Shown here piece by piece: positions 17,232 through 32,598 of a stretch of DNA of 64,000 nt. The first letter of the stretch is position 1. Every line of letters begins with the position of its first letter. The notes beneath the pieces were generated by a model, which saw only the letters and a program-made list of their open reading frames with translations, made no database searches and was not told the DNA's origin. The DNA is from a bacterium (GTDB lineage Bacteria > RBG-13-61-14 > DATKZS01), in NCBI GenBank assembly GCA_963674965.2, contig CAXXFL010000006.1:96001-160000 (forward strand), read 5' to 3'. The position numbers and the translations under genes are program-made.

Positions 17232-18272
17232 ATGACCGAGGCAACGATAAGCGGAAAGGACCGGCTCTGGCCCACTCTCAAGCGGATACTTTTTCCCCAG
17301 TGGGTGAGGAACAGGCGGGTCAAGCACACGAAGGCGGGCTACGTTTTCGTTCTTCTCATGGTGGCGGTGGCGGGCGCTTCCTTCAACACGGGCAACAATC
17401 TTCTTTACATACTGCTCTCCGTCATGCTCTCGGGACTTTTCGCCTCCTTCTTGATATCGGAGTATATAATAATCTCGCTCGAAATCGAGAGGGACGCCCC
17501 CGAGGTCGTGACCGAGCGGACCCCTTTTCGCGTGACCTACTCGGTGAAAAACAAGAAAAAGGTCATGCCCACCATGGCCCTGGCCATCGAGGAAAAGCTG
17601 GGCACGCTGGATATTATGTCGCTCGTGTCCTTCGCCGGTCCCGGGACGGTGGTTAAGGCCAAGGCCCCGGCCATGACCGGCAAGAGGGGCCGGGTGAAGT
17701 TCGAGGACACCATAATAAGGACCACCGCCCCCTTCGGCTTTTTCGACAAGGCCAAGCGTGTGCCCCTTGGCGGCGAGGTGATATCTCTTCCCCGCACCGA
17801 CGAGGTGGCCGTGGACCTCGATGAAATCCAGGCCTCGGGGGAGGAAAGGCCGCGCTCGAAGCCGGGACAGGGCGACGAGCTTTTCGGGTTCCGTAGCTAC
17901 GTCAGGGGCGACCCGGTCAAGGACGTCCATTGGAAGACCTCGGCCCGCTCCGGAAAAATGATGGTCCGCCAGAGGGAGGCGGAGGAGGAAAGGAGACTTC
18001 GCCTGGTCCTGGCCGTGTCGGACTCGGGCCTGGACCCGTCCAGGGAGGAGGCGGTCAGGAAAGCGGCCTCATTGGCCTCCTCGGCCCTCGACCAGGGATG
18101 GCTGGTGAGGATTGAGCTTCCCGGAGGCAGAGGAGTGGACTTCGGAAGGGGGGGCGGACACCTCTACTCGATTTTAATGTTCCTGGCCCTGTTCGACGAC
18201 CCAAAGTCCCGAGAGGGGACCCAGCTTGCCCCCACTGACGTCGAAAGCGTGGCCATTGGAAACGCCGGATGA
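17232..18272 (+). CDS. DUF58-domain membrane-anchored protein
   Basis: N-terminal TM pair with NTGNNLLY, APFGFF, RSYVRGDPVKDVHWKTSAR. Confidence 0.85.
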   Translation: MTEATISGKDRLWPTLKRILFPQWVRNRRVKHTKAGYVFVLLMVAVAGASFNTGNNLLYILLSVMLSGLFASFLISEYIIISLEIERDAPEVVTERTPFRVTYSVKNKKKVMPTMALAIEEKLGTLDIMSLVSFAGPGTVVKAKAPAMTGKRGRVKFEDTIIRTTAPFGFFDKAKRVPLGGEVISLPRTDEVAVDLDEIQASGEERPRSKPGQGDELFGFRSYVRGDPVKDVHWKTSARSGKMMVRQREAEEERRLRLVLAVSDSGLDPSREEAVRKAASLASSALDQGWLVRIELPGGRGVDFGRGGGHLYSILMFLALFDDPKSREGTQLAPTDVESVAIGNAG

Positions 18273-18281
18273 AATGAGGTT

Positions 18282-18452
18282 TTACTTGCCCTCGATCTTG
18301 AGTTTGAACTCGGGATGTTCCTTTAAGTAATGGTCCCGGCAGTCGGGGCAGCAAAAATGATGGACGTAATCCGAGCCTTCCTCCGTTATGGCCACGGTCT
18401 GAGGAATCTCCTTTTTGCAAAGCTCGCATGAAATCTTCACTATGTCCGACAT
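18282..18452 (-). CDS. Small Cys-rich DUF3330/TRASH-like metal-binding protein
   Basis: MSDIVKISCELCKKEIP...EGSDYVHHFCCPDC. Confidence 0.7.
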   Translation of the reverse strand: MSDIVKISCELCKKEIPQTVAITEEGSDYVHHFCCPDCRDHYLKEHPEFKLKIEGK

Positions 18453-18726
18453 GATTTGTTTCCTCTCTGAAATGATAAGACGGCCGCAAAAGGTTTCGCT
18501 TAATGAAAAGAAGCCGTAAAAACCAGCGCCGTGTTTCAAGATAACAAATAGCGTAGTTTATGTCAAGATTATCGAGCATTTACCTTCTTATGCTTACGCG
18601 ATCGAGCCGATGATTCCATAATTGGCAAGGCCCGTCTCGAGCTTGGCGCCCATGACGAAAATTTCTATGCTATGATGGTTTGTAAGCCGCTTTCGCGGCG
18701 AATGTTCGAGGTCGGGGGCTGGCGAC

Positions 18727-19137
18727 ATGAAGAAGCGAAAAGACAAGAGAACCTCGCGTGATGGTTTTTCCATGCGCGTCAAGGTCTGGATCGAGGATCG
18801 AAACGGCGACATGGTCATGAGCATGGGACGGGTGGCCATGCTCGAGGCCATCGAGAGGACCGGCAGTCTCAACCGGGCGGCCCAGGAGATGAACATGAGT
18901 TATCGGGCCATCTGGCTCCGGCTGCGGAGCACCGAGGACCGCCTGGGTAAGAAGCTCATGGTTAGCACCACCGGCGGCAGCGAGGGTGGAGGCACCGAGT
19001 TGACCCCCCTTGCCCGGGCCATGATAATAAAGTTTCGAGAACTGAACTCGGATATCGCCGAAGCGGCCGACTCGCGCTTCATTGCCTATAGCGAAGAGTT
19101 TCTTGAAGACGACGACACGGAACCACCCCTGGAATAG
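18727..19137 (+). CDS. modE: ModE-family winged-helix regulator without TOBE domains
   Basis: GRVAMLEAIERTGSLNRAAQEMNMSYRAIW...GGSEGGGTELT; lies upstream of modABC. Confidence 0.85.
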   Translation: MKKRKDKRTSRDGFSMRVKVWIEDRNGDMVMSMGRVAMLEAIERTGSLNRAAQEMNMSYRAIWLRLRSTEDRLGKKLMVSTTGGSEGGGTELTPLARAMIIKFRELNSDIAEAADSRFIAYSEEFLEDDDTEPPLE

Positions 19138-19260
19138 TCCCATCCCATAGTTCTCTTGATCCATTTCATCCTATGCGGCCTTTTGCGGTGATTCTGAACG
19201 CCTATCTGTCCGGATACTTAAAAGTGATGTATTTCATTAATAAAATTGACATTTCCGCTC

Positions 19261-19284
19261 CGTTATGTTAAACATGATACAACG
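19261..19284. promoter_or_regulatory. Putative ModE operator next to a TTGACA -35 box (19246-19251)
   Basis: CGTTATGTTAAACATGATACAACG resembles the CGTTATAT-Nx-ATATAACG ModE palindrome and lies upstream of modA. Confidence 0.65.
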
Positions 19285-19389
19285 GGCGCAAGATTGATGG
19301 ATTTACCCCATCCGCTCGCGACGCGCCGGAAAATAAAGCGTTTTCTAAATTTATGCTCATTTCTCGAATGGATACGGAGGTCTTCAGTT

Positions 19390-20184
19390 TTGCTTGGCCA
19401 TAAAGGGAAACATCGCTATTCTTTACCGCTTCTTACTTTCTTCGCGGCCATTTTGTTTTCAAGCCCGGCTTCATGGGCGGATGGCCCGGAGAAGCTGACG
19501 GTTTACGCCGCGGCTTCCACCACCAACGCCATGACCGAGGTGGCGAAGCTTTACGAGAAGAAAACCGGGACCCAGGTGGCCTTGTCCTTTGCCTCCTCCT
19601 CGACCCTGGCCAAGCAGATCGAGATGGGAGCGCCGGCCCAGGTTTATCTTTCGGCCAATCCCGAGTGGATGGATTATCTCGAACAAAAGGGACTGATCGA
19701 GCCCGGTGGCCGCGCCGACGTGCTGGGAAACCGCATCGCCCTCATCGCTCCCGCGGATAGCGCGATCGAGGAAGTCAAGATCGAAAAGGGATTCGACCTG
19801 GCCAAAATCCTCGGGGACGGCTACCTGGCCATGGGCGATCCCGACCACGTGCCCGCGGGCATGTACGGCAAGGCGGCCCTCCAGGGCCTTGGCGCCTGGG
19901 AGGCGGTCGAGAAGAAAGTCGCCCGGGCCAAGGACGTGCGGGCGGCCCTGGCTTTGGTGGAAAGGGGCGAGTCCCCTCTCGGCCTCGTTTATACCACCGA
20001 CGCGGCCATCTCGGAAAAGGTCAAGGTGGTGGGATTGTTTCCCGAGGACTCCCATCCACCCATCGTCTACCCCGTCGCCATCGTGAAGGGCGCCGACCTC
20101 AAGGCCTCCATGCCCTTTATTGATTTCCTCAAGACGCCCGAGGCTTCGGCCTTGTTCACGAAATACGGCTTTATCGTCCGTTAA
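19390..20184 (+). CDS. modA: Molybdate/tungstate ABC transporter substrate-binding protein
   Basis: AAAS, FASSSTLAKQIE.GAPA, GDPDHVPAGMYG, VYTTDA; TTG start after GGAGG (19376-19380). Confidence 0.92.
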   Translation: MLGHKGKHRYSLPLLTFFAAILFSSPASWADGPEKLTVYAAASTTNAMTEVAKLYEKKTGTQVALSFASSSTLAKQIEMGAPAQVYLSANPEWMDYLEQKGLIEPGGRADVLGNRIALIAPADSAIEEVKIEKGFDLAKILGDGYLAMGDPDHVPAGMYGKAALQGLGAWEAVEKKVARAKDVRAALALVERGESPLGLVYTTDAAISEKVKVVGLFPEDSHPPIVYPVAIVKGADLKASMPFIDFLKTPEASALFTKYGFIVR

Positions 20185-20882
20185 TGGATTACCTTCGTTT
20201 CAGTCCCGCCGAGCTGGAGGCGCTGAGGCTCAGCTTCAAGGTCGCGAGCGTGGCCGTGATCTCCAGCCTCCCTTTCGGCGTCCTCTCGGCCTGGATAATT
20301 TCCCGGATGACCTTTCCCGGCAAGGCCGTGCTGAACGGGATCATCCACCTTCCCCTGGTCCTGCCGCCCGTGGTCACGGGATACGTTCTTCTGGTCCTCC
20401 TTGGCAGGAAGGGCGCCATCGGGGCGTTCCTGTACGATAAGCTCGGCCTGAGCTTCGCCTTCGACTGGAAAGGGGCAGCCCTGGCCGCGGCGGTCATGTC
20501 TTTTCCCCTCATGGTCCGATCGATACGGCTTTCCTTCGAGGCCCAGGACCGGGGACTTGAAAAGGCCGCCCGCACCCTGGGCGCGGGCCCGGTCAGGGTC
20601 TTCTTTACCGTCACCCTCCCCCTTATCACGCCGGGTATCATAACCGGCCTTATCCTTGCCTTCGCCCGGGGCCTGGGGGAGTTCGGGGCCACCATTACCC
20701 TGGTGTCCAACGTCGAGGGCGAAACCCGCACCCTGCCGCTGGCCCTGTATACTCTTATCCAGACCCCGGGAGGCGAGGACGGCGCCATGCGGCTGTGCCT
20801 GCTGGCGGTCATTCTTTCCATGGCCGCCCTGGCCGCGTCCGAGATCATCACCCATCGCTTCCTTTCCCGGATGGAGGGCTGA
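20184..20882 (+). CDS. modB: Molybdate ABC transporter permease
   Basis: HLPLVLPPVVTG, FPLMVRSIR, FARGLGEFGAT. Confidence 0.93.
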   Translation: MDYLRFSPAELEALRLSFKVASVAVISSLPFGVLSAWIISRMTFPGKAVLNGIIHLPLVLPPVVTGYVLLVLLGRKGAIGAFLYDKLGLSFAFDWKGAALAAAVMSFPLMVRSIRLSFEAQDRGLEKAARTLGAGPVRVFFTVTLPLITPGIITGLILAFARGLGEFGATITLVSNVEGETRTLPLALYTLIQTPGGEDGAMRLCLLAVILSMAALAASEIITHRFLSRMEG

Positions 20883-20885
20883 GCC

Positions 20886-21608
20886 GTGATCGAGGCCAGG
20901 TTAAAAAAGCGGCTCGGAAGCCTCGAGATCGACGCGTCCTTCTCGAGGCCCGGCCCGGGCGTCACGGCGCTCTTCGGCCGGTCGGGCGCGGGAAAAACCT
21001 CGATCGTCAACATGATCGCGGGCGTCCTCCGTCCCGACGCCGGCCGCGTTATCGTGAACGACAAGACCTTGTTCGACTCGGAGCGAAGGATCGACGTTCC
21101 TCCCGAGAAACGGAGAATAGGGTACGTGTTCCAGGACGGCCGCCTCTTCCCCCACGCGTCGGTCGAGAAAAACCTCACTTACGGCATGAAGCTGACGCCG
21201 GCCGGACTAAGGTACGTCGATCTTGGACAGATCGTCGCCCTCCTGGACCTGGGGCATCTCCTCGCCAGGAGGCCGGGCAAGCTCTCGGGCGGAGAGAAGC
21301 AAAGGGTCGCCATCGGCAGGGCCCTCCTCACCAGCCCCCGCCTGCTCCTGATGGACGAGCCACTCGCCTCGCTCGACGCGGCCCGCAAGGAGGAAGTCCT
21401 CCCCTTCATCGCCAGGATTTGCCGAGAGTTCGAAATTCCCATCATCTACGTCAGCCACATGATCGACGAGGTATCAAGACTCGCCGACAAGACCGTCGTC
21501 ATCCATAACGGCAAAGTGGATATTGAAGCCTCGCGCCGAATAGCCGGGAAAGACGGCCCGACGTCCGACTCCGATAAAACGGACGGGTCGCGTGAGAGGG
21601 TATGCTGA
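20886..21608 (+). CDS. modC: Molybdate ABC transporter ATP-binding protein (short, no TOBE domain)
   Basis: GRSGAGKT, VFQDGRLFPH, LSGGEKQRVAIGRAL, LLMDEP. Confidence 0.9.
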   Translation: MIEARLKKRLGSLEIDASFSRPGPGVTALFGRSGAGKTSIVNMIAGVLRPDAGRVIVNDKTLFDSERRIDVPPEKRRIGYVFQDGRLFPHASVEKNLTYGMKLTPAGLRYVDLGQIVALLDLGHLLARRPGKLSGGEKQRVAIGRALLTSPRLLLMDEPLASLDAARKEEVLPFIARICREFEIPIIYVSHMIDEVSRLADKTVVIHNGKVDIEASRRIAGKDGPTSDSDKTDGSRERVC

Positions 21609-21725
21609 TAACCGACGTCGTCCAGCGTCACGAAACGGGCTTGATTGCGGCAAGGTGGGTCCCTCGCCCCAAAGCTCCACGGCGCCATTACCGGCATCCA
21701 TAAACGTGATAACCGCTTAAAGTAC

Positions 21726-22415
21726 TTATTGGAGGTTTTCCAGGTTCAACAGGTTTGGCTTGATGGCGGAACGGGACCAATGTTCCCCTACCGACTGAAT
21801 AAACGCGGGACGAACCAGTTTAGCCCTTTGTTCGAGCCACTTGTCCTTGTCGAATCGAAGATATATCCCCTCCGCGGGCTGATCTGACAGCTTTGATTGT
21901 TGTAAGAGATTTTTAAGCTCAGGGATATTAAAACGACCGCGCGCGATAGTGGGTACTCGAGAGATTCCCATTTTAATTAATAGGCCGTCGCGACGATCGG
22001 ATGAAAAGAACCTTCCAGATTGCTTGTCATAGATATCGAAACCAAGGAACCAGTCCGGCAGCCGATTGTAAAACACCGAGTGCCGGGCGTAACACCATTC
22101 TCCAAAGAGAATGAATCGGTCGGAAAGATGCTCGAAAAGCGCGTCCGTCCGGAGTTCGAGCCATTCCCCAAGCTTCTTCCATTGGCCCGAACCCGGCAGG
22201 CGCAAATACTCGCCTCTATTATACGCCAGAAGACTGGCTTCCGAATCGAAGGATATCCCCAAATTTGCGCCGTCAACCTTCTCCTCGACAATAAGATCGC
22301 GTCGGAGGAAATCATCGCGCTCGGACTCGGACAGTACCTTATCGCCCCTGATATCGACTCCAGCCAACGTGGCCAGATGAGGCGTTGACGGGTATTTTAC
22401 GAAATCCTCGTTCAT
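21726..22415 (-). CDS. ATP-dependent RNA ligase family protein (nucleotidyltransferase domain only)
   Basis: KYPSTPHL, motif I EKVDGAN, FGEW, FDIY, EGIYLR, AKLVR. Confidence 0.85.
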   Translation of the reverse strand: MNEDFVKYPSTPHLATLAGVDIRGDKVLSESERDDFLRRDLIVEEKVDGANLGISFDSEASLLAYNRGEYLRLPGSGQWKKLGEWLELRTDALFEHLSDRFILFGEWCYARHSVFYNRLPDWFLGFDIYDKQSGRFFSSDRRDGLLIKMGISRVPTIARGRFNIPELKNLLQQSKLSDQPAEGIYLRFDKDKWLEQRAKLVRPAFIQSVGEHWSRSAIKPNLLNLENLQ

Positions 22416-22942
22416 GTCCCAATCTTCTTCTTAAATTTCTCTTCTGCATATTTAGGGCAGAGAAAATTAACGGTGATCCCTACTTGCTCTAAAGCGTCTT
22501 TCCATCCACACCATTTACTGTCCGTTGCCTGCAAGATGGGAGGTTTTTCATCGTGGGCGTTGGCAACGGCGACAAACTTCCGATCCGATATATCGAAATT
22601 AGCCAGTCCTTTATGGATTGGAAATTCCACGTATGAGTTTCCCCTTTTCGTGATGGTGACGCGATCGCAAACGCGAGAATCATAGCGATTGTCGTGCACC
22701 CATTTCAGGAAGCTGTCACCCACGCCGGGCTGTACACTCATGGAAAGCTGCCCTCGATATTCATCGAAAATTTCATCGCCGGCGTCAATTATCAATCCAC
22801 GCGTTTCAATGACGTGCTCGACGGCTTCAATACAGGAAAGGACGCAAGAGTAGGGAACGTCTGAGTCCGGGTCCGGTTGAGTGGCAAGGTTGGCCGTTTT
22901 TGGAACGTTCGTGTCCACGATACATTTCTTAGGCAATCTCAT
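22412..22942 (-). CDS. PIN-domain-like putative ribonuclease
   Basis: Four acidic positions with PIN-like spacing: IVDTNV, IFDEY, SDRKFVAVA, ATDSK. Confidence 0.65.
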   Translation of the reverse strand: MRLPKKCIVDTNVPKTANLATQPDPDSDVPYSCVLSCIEAVEHVIETRGLIIDAGDEIFDEYRGQLSMSVQPGVGDSFLKWVHDNRYDSRVCDRVTITKRGNSYVEFPIHKGLANFDISDRKFVAVANAHDEKPPILQATDSKWCGWKDALEQVGITVNFLCPKYAEEKFKKKIGT

Positions 22943-24348
22943 TCGGATGCCTCCGCATTTTCCGAACTCGTCCGCATCCTCTTTTTCGTCGCCGCTTTAG
23001 CGTGTTCGATGACGTCGTTCATTTCATCACCGAAAAAGTTCTCCGGCCAGTTCAGGACGTTGCCGAACATGTCAATTTCAAGCGGTTCCAACGTGGCAGG
23101 GTATCTGGAAATATTGGCAAAATAAGCGGATACGTTTTCTTTTGAGACAGCCTCCTCGGCAATGCGCCTTTGCAAGCGCCTCAGAAAATGTTCCGAATGG
23201 GTCTCGATGATTAACTGTATGTTTCTATCCGCTCCTTTTACTCTTGAGTTAATAACGTCGATCATCACGTCGGCCAGCGCGGACTGCGCGCTTGGGTGTA
23301 GATGTATCTCGGGTTGTTCCATGAGAATGATCGACCCGGGCGGCGCGTAGAAGCACTGCACTAAAACCGGCAGCACCTGAGATATACCGAAACCGACGTC
23401 CGGCAGGTCAACCAAGTCTTCTGAACCCTTGGTGCGAACCTTGACCTCGTATTCCTGCCTTTGCTCGGAAATCGATTTTACTTCAAAGTCATCGATCAGA
23501 CCCATTTCTTTTAACTTGATAGCAATAATTTCTCCGAAAAGTTTTGCATGTTTTCCGAAACTATGGGTGAGTTTTCGACCACGCGCCGCGAGGATTGTGG
23601 CAACGGTATTCTCTCCCGCATAGCCGACGCTTTCGGGAGCGATGCCCGTCCATGAATACAAACGCTCGGCTTTTGTGCGAAGAGGCCCAAGATAGCAAAG
23701 GGACCCGAATAATTTTTCATGCCTCAAATTCAGTTCCTGAACAAAATCCGCGTTTTGATGGTAAGCAACAACTTCGTCAGGGAAACCATAAAACCGAACG
23801 GGAGCTTCCGGCATTAATGCTCGTCCTACCTTGCGTTTGAGCTTGTATTTGTCAGCGAAAACTTCGTACCCAGACTTTCTGTCCGATTTAAGTTTCATGC
23901 CAATGGAAAGTATGCGTTTATCTTTATTCATCAAATCATATTTGAGATTATCTAGCGCGAGAGTGTGCTGATCTTTAGCACTGGATCCTACTTCCGCATG
24001 AAAGATTAAATTGTCACCGGAATAGTTGCGATTATTATTGATACGGTCTTTGAATTCCAATGATTCCGGCAGTTCCCATTTATATTCGAAGATAATTTTT
24101 CTTTTCGGGTTCCGGTGAAAGACCATTTCCTGGTAGGATCCGAGCTGAACGGCGGAGTTTCTTCCGCCTGGATAGAAAACCGCTTTCCTGTCGGGGGACT
24201 CGACGGTCTGTTTCAGCATCATCAGGAACTGGCCGATACTCGATTTTCCCGAACTGTTGGCGCCGAAGAACAGGGTAATCGGAGCCATGCGGATTTCTCC
24301 GGTGTCCTCCCAGCCCTTGAAGTTTTGTATTCGCAATTTCTTAAGCAT
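22939..24348 (-). CDS. ABC-type (AAA_15/AAA_21) ATPase with a C-terminal DUF3696-like domain
   Basis: Walker A GANSSGKS, signature DVGFGISQVLP, Walker B MEQPEIHLHP, ETHSE H-loop, C-terminal NWPENFF. Confidence 0.88.
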   Translation of the reverse strand: MLKKLRIQNFKGWEDTGEIRMAPITLFFGANSSGKSSIGQFLMMLKQTVESPDRKAVFYPGGRNSAVQLGSYQEMVFHRNPKRKIIFEYKWELPESLEFKDRINNNRNYSGDNLIFHAEVGSSAKDQHTLALDNLKYDLMNKDKRILSIGMKLKSDRKSGYEVFADKYKLKRKVGRALMPEAPVRFYGFPDEVVAYHQNADFVQELNLRHEKLFGSLCYLGPLRTKAERLYSWTGIAPESVGYAGENTVATILAARGRKLTHSFGKHAKLFGEIIAIKLKEMGLIDDFEVKSISEQRQEYEVKVRTKGSEDLVDLPDVGFGISQVLPVLVQCFYAPPGSIILMEQPEIHLHPSAQSALADVMIDVINSRVKGADRNIQLIIETHSEHFLRRLQRRIAEEAVSKENVSAYFANISRYPATLEPLEIDMFGNVLNWPENFFGDEMNDVIEHAKAATKKRMRTSSENAEASE

Positions 24349-24844
24349 TTTCTTCTTCTCCCGTTATTATCAAGGCTGAACTGGTCCGCTCTTTCGAACA
24401 CCGAGCGCTTTCCCTTTCAAGAGCCGTGAAATTCCAAACGCCGCTTCATGTACCGTCCTCGCGACTCACGGATGATTACGGACTCCACTTTCTCCAGCTA
24501 AATAATATCACCTTGAAGTAACCTAATAAAGCGTACTCTTGTGATCAAGCTTTTCGTGAAATGATTGAGGCATTCGCATATGCAACTTCAAGTCGAGGCA
24601 TTCAATCGTCCCCAGACTTGGTAGTAAGAAGAGTCGCTCACATGATATTAAAGGCAATCTCTGAGGGGCGCCCTTGGGACGGGCCGACCCACCACATTGC
24701 CGTTCATCGGTACAGGCAAGGAGCATGGAAATGATTCATGATGGTCGCGCCGGGTATACGTGGCACGTGGAAAGGGACGCCCGCGGTTCCGAAAAAAACC
24801 GCGGGCGCCCGGGGTTGTACGCGTTTTAGTCCCGGTCTCTTTGA

Positions 24845-26026
24845 TCAATAGGCCTTCTTCAAAAGCTCGAGGGCGTCCTCGTAGGTGACCTCCTCGGGGT
24901 TCATGATGATGGTGCCGTCGTTGATGGCGGTCTTGGCGATCTTCTCGAGGAGACCCTTGTCCACGCCCGCGTCCTTGAGGGTGATGGGCATGCCGGTCAT
25001 GGAGTTGAGCTTCCTGTTAAGGTCCCTTACGGCGTCGGCCACCGCCTTGGCGTCCTGCTCGGCCACTCCCGAGGAGTCCGTCACCCCCATCAGCGGCGCC
25101 AGCTCGGCGATTATGTCTCCCACTTTGCCGATATTGTACTCGATGCCATAGGGCAGGAAGATGGCGTTGGCTATGCCGTGGGGCACGTGGGCCACGCCGC
25201 CCGCGGCGTGGGCCAGGCCGTGGACAACTCCCACCAGGGAATTGGAGAAGCTGACGCCGGCCAAAAGCGCCGCGTTGGCCATGTAGAGCCGGGCCGCGGC
25301 GTCCTTGCCGTTCTCGACGCACTTTATCAGGTTGTCCATGATCAGCTTGATGGCCGTGATCGAGAAGGAGTCAGACACCGGGTTCTTCTGCAGGCAGTAA
25401 TATGCCTCGATGGAGTGGGTCAGGGCGTCCATGCCGGTGGCGGCCGTGATCTTGGGCGGCATGGTCAGGGTCATCTTGGGATCGAGCAGGGCCACGTCGG
25501 GAAGAATCTTATAGGAGGTAAAGGACATCTTGACGCCCTTCTCGACATTGGCGATGACGGCGGCGGAGGTGACCTCGGACCCGGTGCCGGCGGTGGTGGG
25601 AATGACGATAAAGGGCTCCATGTCCTTTTTCACCCGCTCGGCCCCCTGGAACTGGAGAAGGTCGTCCGTGTCCTCCGTGATCACGATGTTGACGCCCTTG
25701 GCCGTGTCGATGCTCGAGCCTCCGCCCACGGCCAGGAGGCAGTCGCAGCCCAGGTCGCGGTACATCCTGGCCACCTCGTTGCATATCTTGTCGCTCGAGT
25801 CGGGAGGCGTCTTGTCGTAGATGCCGCCTATCTCGCGGTCGGTCCCCTCAAAGACCGCCTTGACTTTCTCGATCAGGCCCGCGCCCACCACGCCCTGGTC
25901 CGTGACGATAAGGGGCTTTTTGGCCCCGAGCTGGTCAAGCTCGTGGATCAGGCAGGGCAGAGCGTCAATGCCGCTGACTATCTTGACGGGACAGAAGAAC
26001 TCGTAATAGTCGGGTACGTAAGACAT
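24845..26026 (-). CDS. Iron-containing alcohol dehydrogenase
   Basis: GGGSSIDTAK, IPTTAGTGSEVT, GMDALTHSIEA, HGLAH, PHGIAN. Confidence 0.92.
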   Translation of the reverse strand: MSYVPDYYEFFCPVKIVSGIDALPCLIHELDQLGAKKPLIVTDQGVVGAGLIEKVKAVFEGTDREIGGIYDKTPPDSSDKICNEVARMYRDLGCDCLLAVGGGSSIDTAKGVNIVITEDTDDLLQFQGAERVKKDMEPFIVIPTTAGTGSEVTSAAVIANVEKGVKMSFTSYKILPDVALLDPKMTLTMPPKITAATGMDALTHSIEAYYCLQKNPVSDSFSITAIKLIMDNLIKCVENGKDAAARLYMANAALLAGVSFSNSLVGVVHGLAHAAGGVAHVPHGIANAIFLPYGIEYNIGKVGDIIAELAPLMGVTDSSGVAEQDAKAVADAVRDLNRKLNSMTGMPITLKDAGVDKGLLEKIAKTAINDGTIIMNPEEVTYEDALELLKKAY

Positions 26027-26053
26027 TGTTTTTCTCCTTTATCTTTGCGGGGC

Positions 26054-26587
26054 CTACTTCATGGCGTTAATGGCTAAAAAGGGCGTCAGGGTCGCGTATA
26101 TCATGGCCTTGATCATAAGTTCCCGGCCCGTGAATTTGGCGGGCCTCTTGAAAAGGTAGTTGAGCATGAGGGAGGGGAAAAGATATTTCTGCACCACCGC
26201 CATGGCCCGGTTGGCCTGCATGGCGTCGTAAAGGCTGCCGTGCACGATGGCGCGGTGCTGGGCGAAGGCCGTATGGGCCGGCATGAGACCGATAAGCAGC
26301 TTGACCGCGGCGTCCATGTTCTTGAACAGGATTTTCAGGTCGGCCGCCCTCTCCTTCTTGCCCAGGTACTTTAGTCTTCCGCCTTCTTTCAACACGTAAA
26401 TCTCCGGCCCCGCGGGCAACACACCAAGGCATAAAACGAAGCCATCCTTGAAGTCGGAGACCTCCTCCATGATTTTCGGGTCGCTCTTGCTTATCAACTC
26501 GAAGGCGACGCCCAGGGCTAAAAGGGCCGTCGAGACCAGCGCCCTCTTCCCCTGGTAGACGGCCTTGGCCGCGGCTTTTGCTTCCAT
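26054..26587 (-). CDS. Hypothetical protein (possibly SCP2-like fold), co-oriented with the Fe-ADH
   Basis: 177-aa ORF with AGGAG RBS and host-like codon usage. Confidence 0.6.
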   Translation of the reverse strand: MEAKAAAKAVYQGKRALVSTALLALGVAFELISKSDPKIMEEVSDFKDGFVLCLGVLPAGPEIYVLKEGGRLKYLGKKERAADLKILFKNMDAAVKLLIGLMPAHTAFAQHRAIVHGSLYDAMQANRAMAVVQKYLFPSLMLNYLFKRPAKFTGRELMIKAMIYATLTPFLAINAMK

Positions 26588-27195
26588 ATCGTTTTCTCCT
26601 TTGCGAGTTTGAAAAATTCAAGAATACCGGCAATCTATCACATTAACGTGCAAGGCTCAAAGGGAAAAGAACCTTCAGGGCAATATTAACGATCGCCGCC
26701 GTCCAAAACGGGGCCGGCCTTTTCCCCATTATAAAACGGGGAGTATGTTCATGCCATATCCTGGTCGAGGTTATTCCACTTGGTCCCGCCGGGGCCGTCC
26801 AAGACCCTGGTTGCAGGGGCTTTGGGTACGGCCTCGGGGAGGTTTGGTCATTGCCTCGGCCATCAAAGCCACGCCTGTACGCTCGATTGAGATCATCCGG
26901 CCGATGTAGCCGACCGGAACGGCAGCGGGCTACAGGCTGGGTAAGCGCCTTCTCCGGAATTGGCTCCCGGACACCACGCTGATGGGTGGCGGACCGGCTA
27001 GGTGGGCCTCATTTGTTGCCCGGTCGAGATGGTAAACGCGGTGGGGATCACGATAAAAGATGGCGCCCGCGGACCAGCACCCGGCGCCGGGGATTTTTTT
27101 ACCCTTTGATTTTTCCGCAAATTGCAACGGCCAATAACCTGGCCCGCCAAATCGTGATATCATGGCCCGCGATCATAAATGGGAGGACTCGAGTC

Positions 27196-28593
27196 GTGAT
27201 GCTTACGATCAACAACGCGAGACGGCCGGCCGCGGACCTTGGCTTTCTGCTTCACAAACGGCCGGGAAAGGCCCAGTCCTTTTCCCTTCCCTTCGGCGGG
27301 GCCCACGTGTTTTATCCGGAGGCGGGGGAGGACTCCTGCACGGCCGCCCTTCTTTTGGAGGTGGACCCGATCGGGCTTGTCCGTAAAACGCGGGGGACCA
27401 GGGGGGACTCTCACGCCCTGGCCCAGTACGTGAACGACCGTCCTTACGCGGCCTCGTCTTTCATGTCCGTGGCCATCTCCCGCGTGTTCGGGTCGGCGCT
27501 GAACGGCAAATGCAAGGACCGTCCCGACCTCGTTGATACTCCCCTGCCCCTTACGGCCAGGATATCGGTGCTTCCCTGCAGGGGCGGCGAGCCATTTTTG
27601 CAAAGACTCTTCGAGCCGCTGGGCTACAAGGTCGAGGCGGAGCGCCATCGCCTCGACGAGAAGTTCCCCGAATGGGGCGAGAGTCCCTATTTCACGGTCA
27701 CCCTGAGCCAGGAGGTCAGGCTCATGGACCTTCTGACCCATATCTATGTCCTCGTGCCCGTGCTCGATAATGACAAGCACTATTGGGTGACTGAGGACGA
27801 GATCGATAAACTCCTGAGGCGCGGCGAGGGTTGGCTCGATTCGCATCCGGACAAGGAGGTCATCGCCCGCAGGTATTTCAAACACCAGCGCCGCCTGGTA
27901 CGTGACTTCCTCGCCCGCTTGGTCGACGAGACGGACGACCCCGACCGGGCCCTGGAGGAGCAGGCCGGAGAGGAAAACGATATCGAGAAGAAGATCGGCC
28001 TGAAGGACCTGCGCCTGGCCGAGGTCGTCTCGGCGGTCCAGGAAAGCGGGGCCTCGAGCGTTCTTGACCTTGGCTGCGGCGAGGGCATGCTCTTGCGGGA
28101 ACTTGTCAAGATCAGGCGACTGGAGCGGATAGTGGGCATGGACGTGTCCCACCTCGCCCTCGAGAGGGCCTCGAGCCGTCTTAAGATGGACCGTATGTCG
28201 GATAAGAGTCTGCAAAGAATAAACCTCATCCAGGGGTCCCTCATGTACAGGGACAAGCGCCTGTCGGGGTTTGACGCGGCATGCGTTATCGAGGTCATCG
28301 AGCACCTGGACCCGCCCAGGCTCCGGGCCTTCGAGCGCGTGCTCTTCGAGTTCGCCCGGCCCGAAACTATAGTGATAACCACTCCCAACGTGGAGTATAA
28401 CTCGAGGTTCGAGGACCTGCCGGCGGGCAGGCTTCGCCACCGCGACCACCGTTTCGAGTGGACCAGGAAGGAATTCGAGGACTGGGCGAATGAAGTGGCC
28501 GGCCGCCATGGATACTCCGCCGGCTTCAGGCCCATAGGAGAAATCGACCCCGACCTGGGCCCGCCCACGCAAATGGGAGTTTTCCAAAAATGA
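27196..28593 (+). CDS. hen1: 3'-terminal RNA ribose 2'-O-methyltransferase Hen1
   Basis: N-terminal ligase-activating domain (DLGFLLHK, YVNDRPY, KHYWV) and MTase domain (DLGCGEG, EVIEHL, TTPNVEYN, RHRDHRFEW); GGGAGG RBS before GTG at 27196. Confidence 0.93.
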   Translation: MMLTINNARRPAADLGFLLHKRPGKAQSFSLPFGGAHVFYPEAGEDSCTAALLLEVDPIGLVRKTRGTRGDSHALAQYVNDRPYAASSFMSVAISRVFGSALNGKCKDRPDLVDTPLPLTARISVLPCRGGEPFLQRLFEPLGYKVEAERHRLDEKFPEWGESPYFTVTLSQEVRLMDLLTHIYVLVPVLDNDKHYWVTEDEIDKLLRRGEGWLDSHPDKEVIARRYFKHQRRLVRDFLARLVDETDDPDRALEEQAGEENDIEKKIGLKDLRLAEVVSAVQESGASSVLDLGCGEGMLLRELVKIRRLERIVGMDVSHLALERASSRLKMDRMSDKSLQRINLIQGSLMYRDKRLSGFDAACVIEVIEHLDPPRLRAFERVLFEFARPETIVITTPNVEYNSRFEDLPAGRLRHRDHRFEWTRKEFEDWANEVAGRHGYSAGFRPIGEIDPDLGPPTQMGVFQK

Positions 28594-31145
28594 AGCTGAC
28601 CGTTCCCGAGCTTTCCCTGGTGGTGATGATAGGGGTTTCCGGGTCGGGCAAGTCCTCTTTCGCCAGGAGGCACTTTCTGCCCACGGAGATACTTTCGTCC
28701 GACTTCTGCCGGGGCCTGGTCTCGGACGACGAGACCGACCAGACGGCGACCGACGACGCCTTCGAGCTTCTCCACTACGTCGCCTCCAAGCGACTCGCCA
28801 GGGGAAAGCTCACGGTGATCGACGCGACCAACGTGCAGACGGAGGCCAGAAAGCCGCTTGTCCAACTGGCCAGGCAATACCACTGCCTGCCCGTGGCCAT
28901 CGTCCTCGACCTTCCTGAAAAGCTGTGCCGGGAGAGGAACAGGGCAAGGCCCGACCGCGACTTCGGCTCCCACGTGACGCGCGGGCAGGCGAGGAACCTG
29001 AAGCGCTCGATCAAGGGGCTCAAGCGCGAGGGGTTCAGGCGTATCCATATCCTGGACTCCCCCGACAAGATCGAGGCGGCCGAGATAGTACGGGAGCCTC
29101 TCTGGAACGACAAGAAAGAGGAGAAGGGTCCTTTCGATATTATCGGCGACGTCCACGGCTGTCTTGACGAGCTTATCGTCCTTCTCCGCAAACTGGGATA
29201 CAAGGTCGGCGGGCGCGATGGCGAAGAGGGATGGGAGGTTTCGCATCCGGAGGGCAGGAAAGCCGTGTTCCTGGGCGACCTGGCCGATCGGGGACCGGAC
29301 GTTCCCGGCGCGTTCCGGCTGGCCATGGACATGGTGGAGTCGGGAAAGGCCTACGCCGTGCCCGGCAACCACGACGTCAAGCTCCTTAAATATCTGGACG
29401 GAAAGAACGTCCAGGTCAGGCACGGCCTTCTCGAGTCCATCGAGGGACTCGAGAAGGAAAGCGAGGAATTCAGGCGGAGGGTCGGAGAATTTATCAGGGG
29501 CCTTATCAGCCATTACGTGTTCGACGGCGGCGGGCTGGTCGTGGCCCACGCGGGCATGAAGGAGGAGCTGCAGGGACGCGGTTCCGGCCAGGTCCGGGAG
29601 TTCGCCCTGTTCGGGGAGACCACGGGCGAGACCGACGAGTTCGGCCTGCCCGTCCGCTACGACTGGGCCTCGGAGTACCGGGGCAAGGCCATGGTCGCCT
29701 ATGGGCACACGCCCGTTCCGGAGCCGGAATGGCTGAACGGGACCATCAACCTGGACACGGGTTGCGTTTTCGGCGGCAGGCTCACGGCCCTTCGCTATCC
29801 GGAGCGGGAACTGGTCTGGGTGGAAGCGGCCAGGCAATACCACGAGCCGGTGAAACCCCTCGAGCGCGGGGCTCCCGATTTTACGGCGCAGCAGGAACAC
29901 GACGACGCGCTCGATATCGATGACGTTCTAGGCAAGCGCCTGATCGAGACCCGCCTTCGTCGCGGCGTGACCGTCAAGGAGGAGAACTCCATCGCGGCCC
30001 TCGAGGCCATGACGCGGTTCGCGATCGATCCCAAGTGGCTCATTTACCTTCCCCCCACCATGTCGCCCACGGAGACCTCGACCGAGCCCGGTCTCCTCGA
30101 GCACCCCGCCCAGGCCCTGGATTACTTTCGAAAGCATAATGTAAGCCGAGTGGTCTGCGAGGAGAAGCACATGGGGTCGCGGTGCGTGGCGATCGCGTGC
30201 CGGAACGAGAAGGCCGCTCGCGAACGCTTCGGCGTCAGGGATGACGAGACAGGGGCCTTATATACCCGCACGGGCCGGAGGTTCTTCGATAATGACGAGG
30301 TCGAGCGTGAGTTCCTCGCCAGGGTGAGAAACGCGGCCGGGGCGGCGGGCGTCTGGGAGAAGCTCGAGACGGACTGGATATGCCTGGACTGCGAGCTTAT
30401 GCCCTGGTCGGCCAAGGCCCAGGAGCTTTTGCGAAGCCAGTACGCGGCGGTGGGATCGGCCTCCCGGGCGGCCCTGGCCCAGGCGATTAATGCCCTGGGC
30501 CAGGCGAAAAAAAGCGGAACCGACGTTCATGATCTTCTATCGAAATATACGAACAAGTCCCACATGGCGGACGGCTTCGTCGAGGCCTATCGCCATTATT
30601 GCTGGAACGTGGAATCCATATCCGACCTGAAGCTGGCGCCCTTTCACGTCATGGCCTCGGAGGGGGCCGTCCACGCGGACAAGGACCACCTCTGGCACAT
30701 GGAGACCATCGCCGGGATTTGCGACAAGGACGAGGAAATACTGCTTGCCACTGACTTCAAGACGGTCGAGCCGGGAGACGAGAAAAGCGAGGCTGAAGGG
30801 ACCCGCTGGTGGGAGGAACTGACGGGAAAAGGCGGCGAAGGCATGGTGATAAAGCCCCTCGACTTCGTGGCCAGGGGCGAGAGGGGCCTCATCCAGCCCG
30901 CGATCAAATGCCGGGGCCGGGAATACCTCCGCATTATTTACGGCCAGGAATATACCTTGCCCGAAAACCTCGAGCGGCTAAAGAAAAGGGGCCTCTCCAC
31001 CAAGCGTTCCCTCGCGCTCCGGGAGTTCGCCCTCGGCCTCGAGGCCCTCGAGCGCTTCGTAAGGAAAGAGCCCCTGCGCCGCGTGCACGAGTGCGCTTTC
31101 GGAGTGCTGGCCCTGGAAAGCGAGCCCGTGGACCCGAGGCTGTAA
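28590..31145 (+). CDS. pnkp: Polynucleotide kinase-phosphatase-ligase Pnkp
   Basis: Kinase GVSGSGKS; metallophosphatase GDVHG, GDLADRG, GNHD; ligase EEKHMGSR, DCELMP, EGMVIKP, KCRG; ATGA overlap with hen1. Confidence 0.93.
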   Translation: MKLTVPELSLVVMIGVSGSGKSSFARRHFLPTEILSSDFCRGLVSDDETDQTATDDAFELLHYVASKRLARGKLTVIDATNVQTEARKPLVQLARQYHCLPVAIVLDLPEKLCRERNRARPDRDFGSHVTRGQARNLKRSIKGLKREGFRRIHILDSPDKIEAAEIVREPLWNDKKEEKGPFDIIGDVHGCLDELIVLLRKLGYKVGGRDGEEGWEVSHPEGRKAVFLGDLADRGPDVPGAFRLAMDMVESGKAYAVPGNHDVKLLKYLDGKNVQVRHGLLESIEGLEKESEEFRRRVGEFIRGLISHYVFDGGGLVVAHAGMKEELQGRGSGQVREFALFGETTGETDEFGLPVRYDWASEYRGKAMVAYGHTPVPEPEWLNGTINLDTGCVFGGRLTALRYPERELVWVEAARQYHEPVKPLERGAPDFTAQQEHDDALDIDDVLGKRLIETRLRRGVTVKEENSIAALEAMTRFAIDPKWLIYLPPTMSPTETSTEPGLLEHPAQALDYFRKHNVSRVVCEEKHMGSRCVAIACRNEKAARERFGVRDDETGALYTRTGRRFFDNDEVEREFLARVRNAAGAAGVWEKLETDWICLDCELMPWSAKAQELLRSQYAAVGSASRAALAQAINALGQAKKSGTDVHDLLSKYTNKSHMADGFVEAYRHYCWNVESISDLKLAPFHVMASEGAVHADKDHLWHMETIAGICDKDEEILLATDFKTVEPGDEKSEAEGTRWWEELTGKGGEGMVIKPLDFVARGERGLIQPAIKCRGREYLRIIYGQEYTLPENLERLKKRGLSTKRSLALREFALGLEALERFVRKEPLRRVHECAFGVLALESEPVDPRL

Positions 31146-31461
31146 AAACGGTCACGACTTTTATCAAGCGTCCCGTACTGAACCGCCGTGGAATGACGCG
31201 CTACCTGGATATCTTCGGACTCGGATGGCTCGCCGCATCCTACGGACATTTTGACCATTGGGGAACATTTGAGAAAGCGTCGACTTGATATTTTAACGAT
31301 CCATATCTCCTCGTCGAACTGGTATGGCCGATGGCAATTTCGAAAAGCCTCTTCCGATCCCGCATGATTGATTTATTATCGTTTGCGCGCGGATCATCTC
31401 AATGATAAGTTAGCTCACACAACGGGGAAAAAAAGGCAAACCGGATAGCAAAGCCAATATT

Positions 31462-32571
31462 ATGGAGCATAACAATATGCAGGAAATACGTTTACCTTCC
31501 GAGGAAAGATACAAGGAAGAACTGGCTGCTCTGACCGCGAATGATGACGGGCCCCGTCCGGCCCGGTGGCAGCTTTCCCCCCGCGCGGTCGAGACTTTCA
31601 TCATGGGCGCGGACAAGCCCGTCATGCACGATAAAAAGAAAGTCGAAATCACCCCCAAGTATTACGGTGACAAAAGCCTGGTCCAGGTGGCGATCGCCAC
31701 CCTGGCCTCGGATCGCGCCCTGCTCCTGGCGGGCGAGCCGGGCACGGCCAAGTCCTGGCTTTCGGAACATCTGGCCGCGGCCATATCGGGAGCCAGCCAG
31801 CCGGTGATACAAGGCACCGCCGGGACCACCGAGGACCAGATCAAGTACGGCTGGAACTACGCCATGCTCCTGGCGGAGGGACCCAGCGAGAAGTCCCTTG
31901 TCAAAAGCCCCATCTACCTGGCCATGGAACAAGGCCGGGTCGCGCGGTTCGAGGAAATCACCCGCTCGGCCTCCGAGGTGCAGGACGCGCTTATCTCGAT
32001 CCTTTCCGAGAAAAGCCTGGCGGTTCCCGAACTCAACCGCATGGTCTTTGCCCGGAAGGGGTTCAACGTCATCGCCACCGCCAACACCCGCGACCGGGGT
32101 ATCAACGACATGTCCAGCGCCCTTAAGCGCCGGTTCAATTTCGTTACCGTTCCCGTCGTTTCCGAGATCGAACTCGAGGTCAAGATCGTGACCAACCGAT
32201 CGGAGGAACTGATGGCCGACTACGAGTTGTCCACATCCCTGAACAAGGACCTGGTCGAGATGCTGGTCACCGTCTTCCAGGAACTGCGGGAAGGGAAAAC
32301 CAAGGACGGCAAAACCAAGGTCAAGCGGCTTTCCACCGTGCTCTCCACCGCCGAGGTAATTTCCGTCATGTTCGCTGGCAACCTGCTCGGGGCCCATTTC
32401 GGGAAGGGCGAGGCCGGAGCCGGTGAACTGGCCCGGAGCGTGATCGGGGCCATTGAAAAGGAGAACCCCGACGATAAAAAGCTCTTCCATGAATACCTTG
32501 AGAACGTGGTTAAGATCAGGAGAGGCCCACACTGGAAGGACTTCTATAATGAGGCCATAAAACTGGCGTGA
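31462..32571 (+). CDS. MoxR-type AAA+ ATPase (YehL-like)
   Basis: GEPGTAKSWLSEHL, GWNYAMLLA, RFEEITR, TANTRDRG..DMSSALKRRFN. Confidence 0.9.
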   Translation: MEHNNMQEIRLPSEERYKEELAALTANDDGPRPARWQLSPRAVETFIMGADKPVMHDKKKVEITPKYYGDKSLVQVAIATLASDRALLLAGEPGTAKSWLSEHLAAAISGASQPVIQGTAGTTEDQIKYGWNYAMLLAEGPSEKSLVKSPIYLAMEQGRVARFEEITRSASEVQDALISILSEKSLAVPELNRMVFARKGFNVIATANTRDRGINDMSSALKRRFNFVTVPVVSEIELEVKIVTNRSEELMADYELSTSLNKDLVEMLVTVFQELREGKTKDGKTKVKRLSTVLSTAEVISVMFAGNLLGAHFGKGEAGAGELARSVIGAIEKENPDDKKLFHEYLENVVKIRRGPHWKDFYNEAIKLA

Positions 32572-32598
32572 CCGCCCCCGGCCACGTACCGGACCAAG

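Follow-up and report, generated by a model that had tools for sequence, protein, structure and literature searches.

An ATPase, a PIN-fold nuclease and an RNA ligase on one message: a candidate three-gene form of the HEC-03 anti-phage system

In a 64,000-nucleotide stretch of bacterial DNA (positions 96,001 to 160,000 of contig CAXXFL010000006.1; hereafter, the window), three adjacent minus-strand genes encode an ABC-type ATPase, a small protein with an apparent PIN fold and a stand-alone RNA ligase (Table 1). An earlier note on the window had described these genes as coupled by ATGA overlaps, low in G+C content (GC) and flanked by modC and the gene of an iron-containing alcohol dehydrogenase (Fe-ADH), and this layout is confirmed by the open reading frames (ORFs), the sequence itself, a GC scan and family matches. 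Over approximately 21600-24800, GC is 0.43-0.53 compared with 0.60-0.66 on both flanks (400-nt windows). The operon holds no gene besides those of the ATPase, the PIN protein and the ligase, and no VapB-type antitoxin gene adjoins the PIN gene.

Table 1. Coordinates in the window of the three genes, their overlaps and the upstream spacer.
Feature	Position	Strand	Basis or remark
ABC-type ATPase, 469 aa	22939-24348	-	ORF call, Pfam, PADLOC
PIN-fold nuclease, predicted RNase effector, 176 aa	22412-22942	-	ORF call, PADLOC model, fold
Stand-alone ATP-dependent RNA ligase, nucleotidyltransferase domain only, 229 aa	21726-22415	-	PF09414
ATGA stop/start overlap ATPase/PIN, 4 nt	22939-22942	-	read in sequence (...gaATGAgat...)
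ATGA stop/start overlap PIN/ligase, 4 nt	22412-22415	-	read in sequence (...gacATGAacg...)
Spacer upstream of ATPase, 496 nt, GC 0.47-0.50, presumed promoter region	24349-24844		
Terminator-like hairpin of Fe-ADH gene, inverted repeat, 14-nt arms, 8-nt loop	24775-24810		inside the 496-nt spacer

The first protein matches the Pfam families AAA_15 (7.6e-26), AAA_21 (3.8e-20) and, in its tail, DUF3696 (6.3e-09), which bears out the earlier call of an ABC ATPase. Among the PADLOC models it is recognized by PDLC04148 ('HEC-03B'; E 1.1e-126, 421.6 bits) over residues 1-461 of the protein and positions 1-456 of the 458 in the model. The next-best models are NsnB (7.8e-59) and AriA (5.8e-28), the latter covering the C-terminal part alone (282-389). 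In 18 orthologues the residues G29, N31, S32, G34, K35, S37, E344-Q345-P346-E347 and H384 are invariant; the set from G29 to S37 is what we take to be the P-loop, and the others to be further residues of the nucleotide site.

The middle protein matches PADLOC model PDLC04147 ('HEC-03A') with an E of 1.6e-29 over model positions 3-156 of 159. It has no Pfam match at E<=0.1, PF13470 included, and no NCBIfam match. Its structural model, folded with 22 orthologues, has a predicted local distance difference test score (pLDDT) of 94, and a Foldseek search returns weak rows (best E 0.024) that are mostly PIN domains. The best structural matches of the protein are VapC RNases rather than FEN-type enzymes. 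Across 22 sequences, D10 is kept in at least 90%, while D53, E61, D117, D120 and D141 are invariant. These acidic residues sit where active-site acids are expected relative to the predicted strands, following the placement rule of Matelska et al. 2017 (four conserved acids, where strands end and helices begin), and catalytic roles for the individual residues are putative. On the strength of the fold and the PADLOC model we assign the middle protein to the PIN fold and regard it as apparently active, so that the earlier PIN call stands, sustained by the fold and the conserved acidic residues.

The third protein matches PF09414 (RNA_ligase; 2.3e-31, 109.6 bits against a cut-off of 27) over residues 40-200, and has no match in PADLOC-DB. 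The residues E44, E45, K46, D48, G49, E106, D127, E182, G183, R197 and K199 are invariant in 18 orthologues, as are F104, G105, W107 and F126; apart from R197 and K199, these residues fall into the motifs E44-E45-K46-V-D48-G49, F104-G105-E106-W107, F126-D127 and E182-G183. In the numbering of nucleotidyltransferase motifs, K46 of EEKVDG is presumably the lysine of motif I (KxDG); the RNA ligase call of the earlier note, which had singled out this lysine in EKVDG, is thus upheld by the PF09414 match and the invariance of the residue. The ligase model (pLDDT 77) matches Trypanosoma brucei REL1, Pab1020/PpaRnl (Rnl3), the Naegleria Rnl (Rnl5) and T4 Rnl2 in Foldseek at E of about 1e-7; some further matches are DNA ligases (E 1e-5 to 2e-4), with RNA ligases ranking first and no OB domain present. 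A profile search of the PDB yields Aquifex 3qwu (9.6e-05) and Palaeococcus 8uce (1.9e-04), and the solved structures nearest by sequence are of the Rnl3 type (3qwu, 8uce, Pab1020). TIGR01209, the Rnl3 model, scores 19.3 bits on the protein versus a cut-off of 136.9. The protein is a single domain and lacks any N- or C-terminal addition of the kind by which Rnl1, Rnl2, Rnl3 or Rnl5 is defined, and by its sequence it is a bare catalytic domain that falls in no named Rnl subfamily. It is an intact member of the ATP-dependent RNA ligase family and is predicted to seal RNA. Its C-terminal tail (residues 205-223) is conserved (F205, Q207, H212, W213, N221) and is modelled at low confidence.

The earlier note did not recognize the combination as a named system. 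The ATPase and the PIN protein, however, correspond to the two PADLOC models of HEC-03, a pair that has been tested against phages. HEC-03, Hma-embedded candidate 03, consists of an ABC ATPase and a VapC-like PIN protein (Payne, Hughes, Fineran, Jackson, bioRxiv 10.1101/2024.01.29.577857). According to the preprint text, the tested representative of HEC-03 made at least two phages plaque less well on E. coli, by orders of magnitude, and did so only with both genes; induction looked toxic, and no VapB-like antitoxin accompanies the pair (Payne et al.). It should be noted that the gene labels are swapped between the two sources: A denotes the ATPase in the preprint, whereas in PADLOC-DB A is the PIN model (PDLC04147) and B is the ATPase model (PDLC04148). 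The window pair shares with HEC-03 an ABC ATPase with a DUF3696 tail and a small VapC-like PIN protein, encoded by adjacent co-oriented genes and matching the models over nearly their full length. It differs in that HEC-03 is defined as two genes, while here and in most close relatives a translationally coupled RNA ligase gene is added downstream. Judged by these matches, the ATPase-PIN half is a member of HEC-03 and the whole cassette is a three-gene variant of it.

Whether the ligase belongs to the pair was examined in other genomes from two independent seeds. A search seeded with the PIN protein gave 31 loci, of which 23 have a ligase match directly downstream of the PIN gene; 20 of these ligases are full length, a contig end cuts off another, one more is shortened, and the last survives as a remnant that contains a stop codon (L003). 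Three of the 31 loci are uninformative. A search seeded with the ligase alignment found at least 569 relatives, the best 80 of which were kept and yielded 79 new loci. ATPase and PIN matches lie upstream in the same order in 70 of the 79, four are cut by contig ends, and in one (L093) the PIN protein is seen by the HEC-03 PADLOC model alone. After seven duplicates were dropped, all three genes are full length in 77 of 103 unique loci. The 4-nt overlap between the ATPase and PIN genes recurs in most orthologous loci, and in most other loci the start codon of the ligase, GTG or ATG, overlaps the PIN stop. Because the gene order and the 4-nt overlaps recur in dozens of unrelated genomes, the arrangement is not due to chance. 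With the two seeds in agreement, the ligase is a true partner of the ATPase-PIN pair; it is conserved beside the pair elsewhere, a point on which the earlier note had staked its proposal.

The hosts include Pseudomonadota, Thermodesulfobacteriota, Chlorobiota, Planctomycetota, Bacillota, Bacteroidota, Spirochaetota and others, as well as the archaeon Methanolobus. A conjugative plasmid of Aeromonas salmonicida carries the trio, annotated as 'DUF3696 domain-containing protein / hypothetical protein / RNA ligase family protein'; its neighbours there include AbiEii and Hok/Gef genes. A blastn search of E. coli genomes with an enterobacterial copy (L108) gave no match.

The three genes are also inherited together. 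Pairwise distance matrices of the three proteins correlate with Spearman coefficients of 0.77-0.83, a value that none of 200 permutations reached. Among nine close pairs, the differences in each of the three genes fall mostly on third codon positions, which indicates purifying selection on each of them, the ATPase being the most constrained. A deep side branch (L093, L098, L104, L107 and L108) has a ligase that is 51-54% identical to the window copy, with ATPase and PIN proteins at about 26-34%. In a FastTree phylogeny of ATPase plus PIN (84 rows, with a midpoint root for drawing only, in a sample enriched in ligase-bearing loci), ligase-bearing loci occur on both sides of the root, and the spread of the cassette does not track taxonomy, in keeping with rampant horizontal transfer. 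Nucleotide similarity between the window and other loci spans 21735-24377, i.e. the three genes alone. Within 41 related genomes, the ligase is found in one, which is the window's own. Given the low GC and this single occurrence, the cassette is foreign here. The trio is therefore a conserved mobile unit that was horizontally acquired in this genome.

As regards genomic context, flanking ORFs were clustered for approximately 87 loci and the clusters were scanned against Pfam, three of the scanned clusters having no Pfam match. The cassette is preceded by a DNA methylase in 13 loci and followed by an SNF2 helicase in 10 and by a PglZ protein in 10. A TOTE primase-helicase comes after the ligase-less L025, and an SNF2 helicase after L014. 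These neighbours repeat the pattern reported by Payne et al., in which the system is embedded in other defence systems; cassettes of other genomes lie inside Hma-like and BREX loci, as in the preprint. The window copy stands alone, outside any restriction-like system.

In two loci (L098:20-4300 and L108:81-5468) the HEC-03-type ATPase shares one open frame with an upstream protein resembling a type IIG restriction enzyme/methylase, with no stop between them. The upstream part matches PADLOC REase_MTase_IIG at E 9e-244 and 3e-280, respectively, and the arrangement is either a true fusion or an ATPase with an internal start.

The origin of the ligase was traced with a profile search over 1.84 billion representatives, which gave 4093 relatives at E<=0.001, of which 766 reach E<=1e-30. 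Long proteins are frequent among the best 150 of the 4093. In 17 of 25 long relatives scanned, an AAA_33 polynucleotide-kinase-type domain stands beside the ligase domain, and in nine there is a 2H-SAK and/or PTP-SAK domain ('Swiss Army Knife' 2H phosphoesterase / DSP-phosphatase). In others the partner is a histidine phosphatase, or else the end-recognition domains AKAP7-2H and MJ1316. Since its nearest relatives outside the trio are fused to RNA end-healing domains, the trio ligase belongs to the RNA-repair ligases. Its domain thus derives from the RNA-repair world, with the usual end-healing companions missing from the trio. The suggestion of the earlier note that the ligase might instead make a nucleotide signal gains nothing from these data, the nearest relatives being repair ligases fused to kinase/phosphatase domains.

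The long ligase proteins (approximately 874 or 400 aa) were considered as ATPase-PIN-ligase or PIN-ligase fusions and rejected as such: a PIN domain is present in none of the 25, and the rest of these proteins is of the kinase/phosphoesterase-ligase kind. One of the 25 (P0019) holds a HEC-03 ATPase fragment, its N-terminal 140 aa being joined to the ligase domain, with no PIN. Similarly, a metagenome-assembled genome of Klebsiella pneumoniae (L110:3256-6678) encodes the C-terminal half of a HEC-03 ATPase and a ligase domain in one frame, again with no PIN, and the first 670 aa of this ORF match neither Pfam nor PADLOC. Both are apparent deletion fusions. On a Pseudomonas aeruginosa plasmid (L124:4971-6989), a ligase with 34% identity lies beside an HD + AAA_33 (kinase-type) protein between two IS21 copies, and is a compact ligase/end-healing cassette distinct from the trio. 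Finally, distant relatives (<60% identity, and 25-31% in the rows listed), probably RNA-repair ligases of the phages, occur in 197 phage records; Staphylococcus phages account for 180 of these records, and several belong to jumbo phages.

We propose, at about even chances, that the locus is a horizontally acquired, three-gene anti-phage cassette of the HEC-03 type in which the ligase reseals the cuts that the PIN nuclease makes in the cell's own RNA. The ATPase would be the infection sensor and switch and the VapC-like PIN protein the RNase effector, a division of roles known from the two-gene relatives; the ATPase would keep the PIN protein in check and free it upon infection, and the PIN protein would cut essential RNA. 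The ligase, made from the same message, would reseal the 5'-phosphate/3'-OH breaks left by a metal-dependent PIN, with no healing step, and in doing so would limit the damage from leakage or permit recovery once the threat is gone. Ends of this kind are the substrates of classic ATP-dependent ligases. The trio comprises no kinase, phosphatase or cyclic phosphodiesterase. As PIN enzymes are metal-dependent, a metal ion assisting the 3'-O leaving group (Matelska et al. 2017), the missing end-healing enzymes would fit a PIN nuclease whose products need no healing. The sequences establish the family of each protein, the intact catalytic residues, the coupling of the genes, and the conservation and joint inheritance of the trio; we infer which RNA is targeted, what ends the cuts leave and in which direction the ligase acts, as we do sensing by the ATPase, release of the PIN protein and repair by the ligase.

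A number of points weigh against this proposal. The PIN assignment is drawn from the fold and the PADLOC model with no support from Pfam, searching the PDB with a profile of the PIN protein turned up rows at chance level alone, and the end chemistry is assumed from the superfamily. In the preprint text the word 'ligase' occurs 0 times and the tested HEC-03 is described as two genes (Payne et al.). Five of the 31 PIN-seeded loci have an intact PIN gene and room downstream but no ligase, and in L003 the ligase has decayed to its stop-codon-bearing remnant; the existence of two-gene forms and of a decayed ligase means that the ligase is dispensable. On the ATPase+PIN tree the ligase-less L015 and L025 are nested in ligase-bearing clades, which suggests ligase loss. 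Conversely, four of the 79 ligase-seeded loci (L038, L053, L100, L110) keep a ligase without an intact ATPase-PIN pair, and that sample is itself biased to ligase-bearing loci. Finally, a ligase that reversed the cuts freely would blunt the defence, and because it would undo it, extra regulation must be assumed.

A bolder reading, which we hold as a tentative possibility, is that the trio pauses and resumes the cell: the PIN protein would freeze translation and the ligase would later restore the RNA pool, turning abortive infection into reversible dormancy. Before the RNA is restored, the threat would be cleared by a DNA-targeting neighbour (Hma, BREX or restriction) or by the reset of the ATPase. 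In its boldest form, coupled cutting and resealing may excise or rearrange nucleotides and so take the damage beyond the reach of phage repair enzymes.

Other roles for the ligase must be weighed against resealing of the cell's own RNA. The ligase could be a weapon that misjoins ends, circularizes fragments or leaves adenylylated 5' ends, so that host or phage RNA is damaged beyond phage-encoded repair. Its closest solved relatives are of the Rnl3 type, and Rnl3 of Pyrococcus abyssi circularizes RNA (Seshadri and Gopalan, mBio 2025); moreover, it consists of the nucleotidyltransferase domain and has none of the additional domains found in Rnl1-5, and its conserved C-terminal tail, modelled at low confidence, could be read in the same sense. 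We nevertheless consider this unlikely, as the nearest relatives outside the trio are fused to end-healing domains typical of repair, two-gene forms act without a ligase, which is therefore not needed for killing, and nothing in the data points to aberrant products. The same tail could be a docking peptide, and together with the strict translational coupling, the co-evolution of the three proteins and the lack of a VapB-like antitoxin in HEC-03 (Payne et al.) it would suit a ligase that regulates, either as an antitoxin-like brake on the PIN protein or the ATPase or as a reader of broken RNA ends that signals to the ATPase. A mere brake would not need the catalytic residues, all of which are invariant, and the persistence of ligase-less loci shows that the ligase is not an obligatory antitoxin, so that regulation appears quite unlikely.

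The function of the cassette as a whole can likewise be read in other ways. Its rampant spread off taxonomy, its presence on a conjugative plasmid next to Hok/Gef and AbiEii genes and the solitary position of the window copy could all befit a cassette that does not serve mainly in phage defence but spreads on mobile DNA as a selfish addiction (toxin-antidote) module or as an RNA processing unit linked to stress. We regard this as improbable, given that a two-gene homologue protected against phages (Payne et al.), that many loci are embedded in Hma-like or BREX loci and that the 'antidote' and the 'toxin' are each lost at low frequency, which strict addiction does not fit. Action on DNA, with the PIN protein cutting flaps or nicks in phage DNA and the ligase sealing nicks in host DNA, is the possibility to which we give least credence. 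It can be argued from the DNA flap nucleases that the PIN-like superfamily also includes (Matelska et al. 2017) and from the DNA ligases among the Foldseek matches of the ligase model. However, the best structural matches of the PIN protein are VapC RNases and not FEN-type enzymes, and the ligase matches PF09414 and RNA ligases first, lacks an OB domain and has relatives fused to RNA end-healing domains.

Several described systems resemble the trio in part. The Pnkp-Hen1 pathway is likewise a dedicated RNA ligase module that is tied to RNA-damage conflict and horizontally spread. With a kinase, a phosphatase and a methyltransferase activity, it can heal 2',3'-cyclic-phosphate/5'-OH ends and shield the junction, whereas the trio ligase lacks a partner for either task and is coupled to a nuclease of its own. 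PARIS, Menshen and PrrC/RloC combine, as the trio seems to, an ABC-type ATPase sensor with an RNA-directed nuclease, and the NsnB and AriA matches of the ATPase reflect this likeness. To our knowledge, none of them carries a ligase; in the case of PrrC the ligase is brought by the phage. Their effectors also differ: AriB of PARIS is a Toprim protein, and no Toprim gene is present here; PrrC and RloC use HEPN, in contrast to the stand-alone and apparently active PIN protein of the trio. In Menshen, NsnC is an inactive PIN fused to another toxin domain (NAR 2025), while the trio PIN keeps its acids, NsnA (ParB-DUF262) and NsnC have no match, and the NsnB score is far below that of HEC-03.

A PIN-like RNase linked to an ATP-dependent RNA ligase is also known from HARP, a PIN_5 protein-only RNase P that is genomically linked to an Rnl3 RNA ligase (Seshadri and Gopalan, mBio 2025; earlier Matelska et al. 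2017). HARP differs in its PIN and ligase families, in the lack of an ATPase, in a mostly divergent orientation, in its housekeeping role in tRNA processing and in its restriction to extremophiles. Closest in logic is a conflict system of PIN, ATP-grasp RNA ligase, ATPase and HNH proposed by Burroughs and Aravind 2016 (NAR 44:8525), which in the summary of Matelska et al. 2017 comprises PIN_3 (PF13470)/COG1569 proteins and an HNH nuclease. The trio PIN, as noted above, falls outside PF13470 at E<=0.1, and no HNH gene is named among the flanking-gene clusters scanned against Pfam for the approximately 87 loci (three scanned clusters being without a match). A logic similar to that of the trio was thus proposed in 2016, and the two systems may be identical.

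In full-text literature searches, which covered neither supplements nor Burroughs and Aravind 2016, no paper turned up that describes an Rnl-type ligase together with an ATPase-PIN pair. The three-gene form is absent from the PADLOC definition and from the preprint text of Payne et al., and the ATPase-PIN half is already known. The interest lies in the part of the ligase, i.e. the question of what nuclease-based immunity gains from a ligase of its own. Defences that rely on RNases are commonly regarded as suicidal, and it is as a rule the phage that resorts to RNA repair, as a counter-move (T4 Pnkp and Rnl1 versus PrrC). A nuclease and a matching ligase on one host message suggest that some RNase defences are built to be survivable, and the trio is a compact, clonable three-gene system in which this idea can be tested. 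In addition, its ligase, with 229 aa and one domain, is a naturally minimal RNA ligase that may serve as a tool.

No promoter or terminator signal above chance is seen at the cassette; promoter-like sites in the upstream spacer number 4 versus 3.5 expected from shuffles, which is no excess. An Rfam scan of 18000-32000 gave no match at E<=0.1, the cassette ends have no notable flanking direct repeats, and there is no tRNA gene in 10000-40000. Among the sequencing runs listed, two DNA runs of one study contain the stretch, and no RNA run does. On the downstream side lies a molybdate transporter operon, in which ModA, ModB and a ModE-like repressor precede ModC (20886-21608, +; TIGR02142, 322 bits against a cut-off of 285), and on the upstream side lies the Fe-ADH gene (24845-26026; PF00465, PF25137). 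ModC is only 240 aa long and matches model positions 1-213 of 353, its C-terminal third being missing, a truncation that the insertion of the cassette may have caused. The short modC ends 118 nt from the foreign cassette, no remnant ORF is found beyond the cassette, and none of 12 relatives has a ModC above the cut-off. A 177-aa ORF at 26054-26587 (-), with no Pfam or NCBIfam match, lies directly upstream of the Fe-ADH gene in 9 of 9 relatives at 43-53% identity. This pair is kept in the nine relatives with neither modC nor the trio within 1.5 kb, and because both are away from the pair there, the insertion point cannot be reconstructed.

Further upstream of the cassette, at 26986-31145 (+), Hen1 (TIGR04074, 709.6 bits) and Pnkp (TIGR04075, 1431.6 bits) are encoded by overlapping genes that form a complete RNA repair operon, 2.6 kb from the trio and at the native GC of approximately 0.60-0.64. 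Two separate RNA-ligase modules hence lie within 10 kb, of which one deals with cyclic-phosphate/5'-OH damage and the other has no healing functions. Beyond them, 31462-34815 (+) encodes a MoxR-type AAA_5 ATPase (1.6e-35) and then a DUF5682 protein (2.5e-126), and co-oriented ORFs continue to approximately 41 kb; from these family matches, the gene set is a predicted multi-gene MoxR-associated system.

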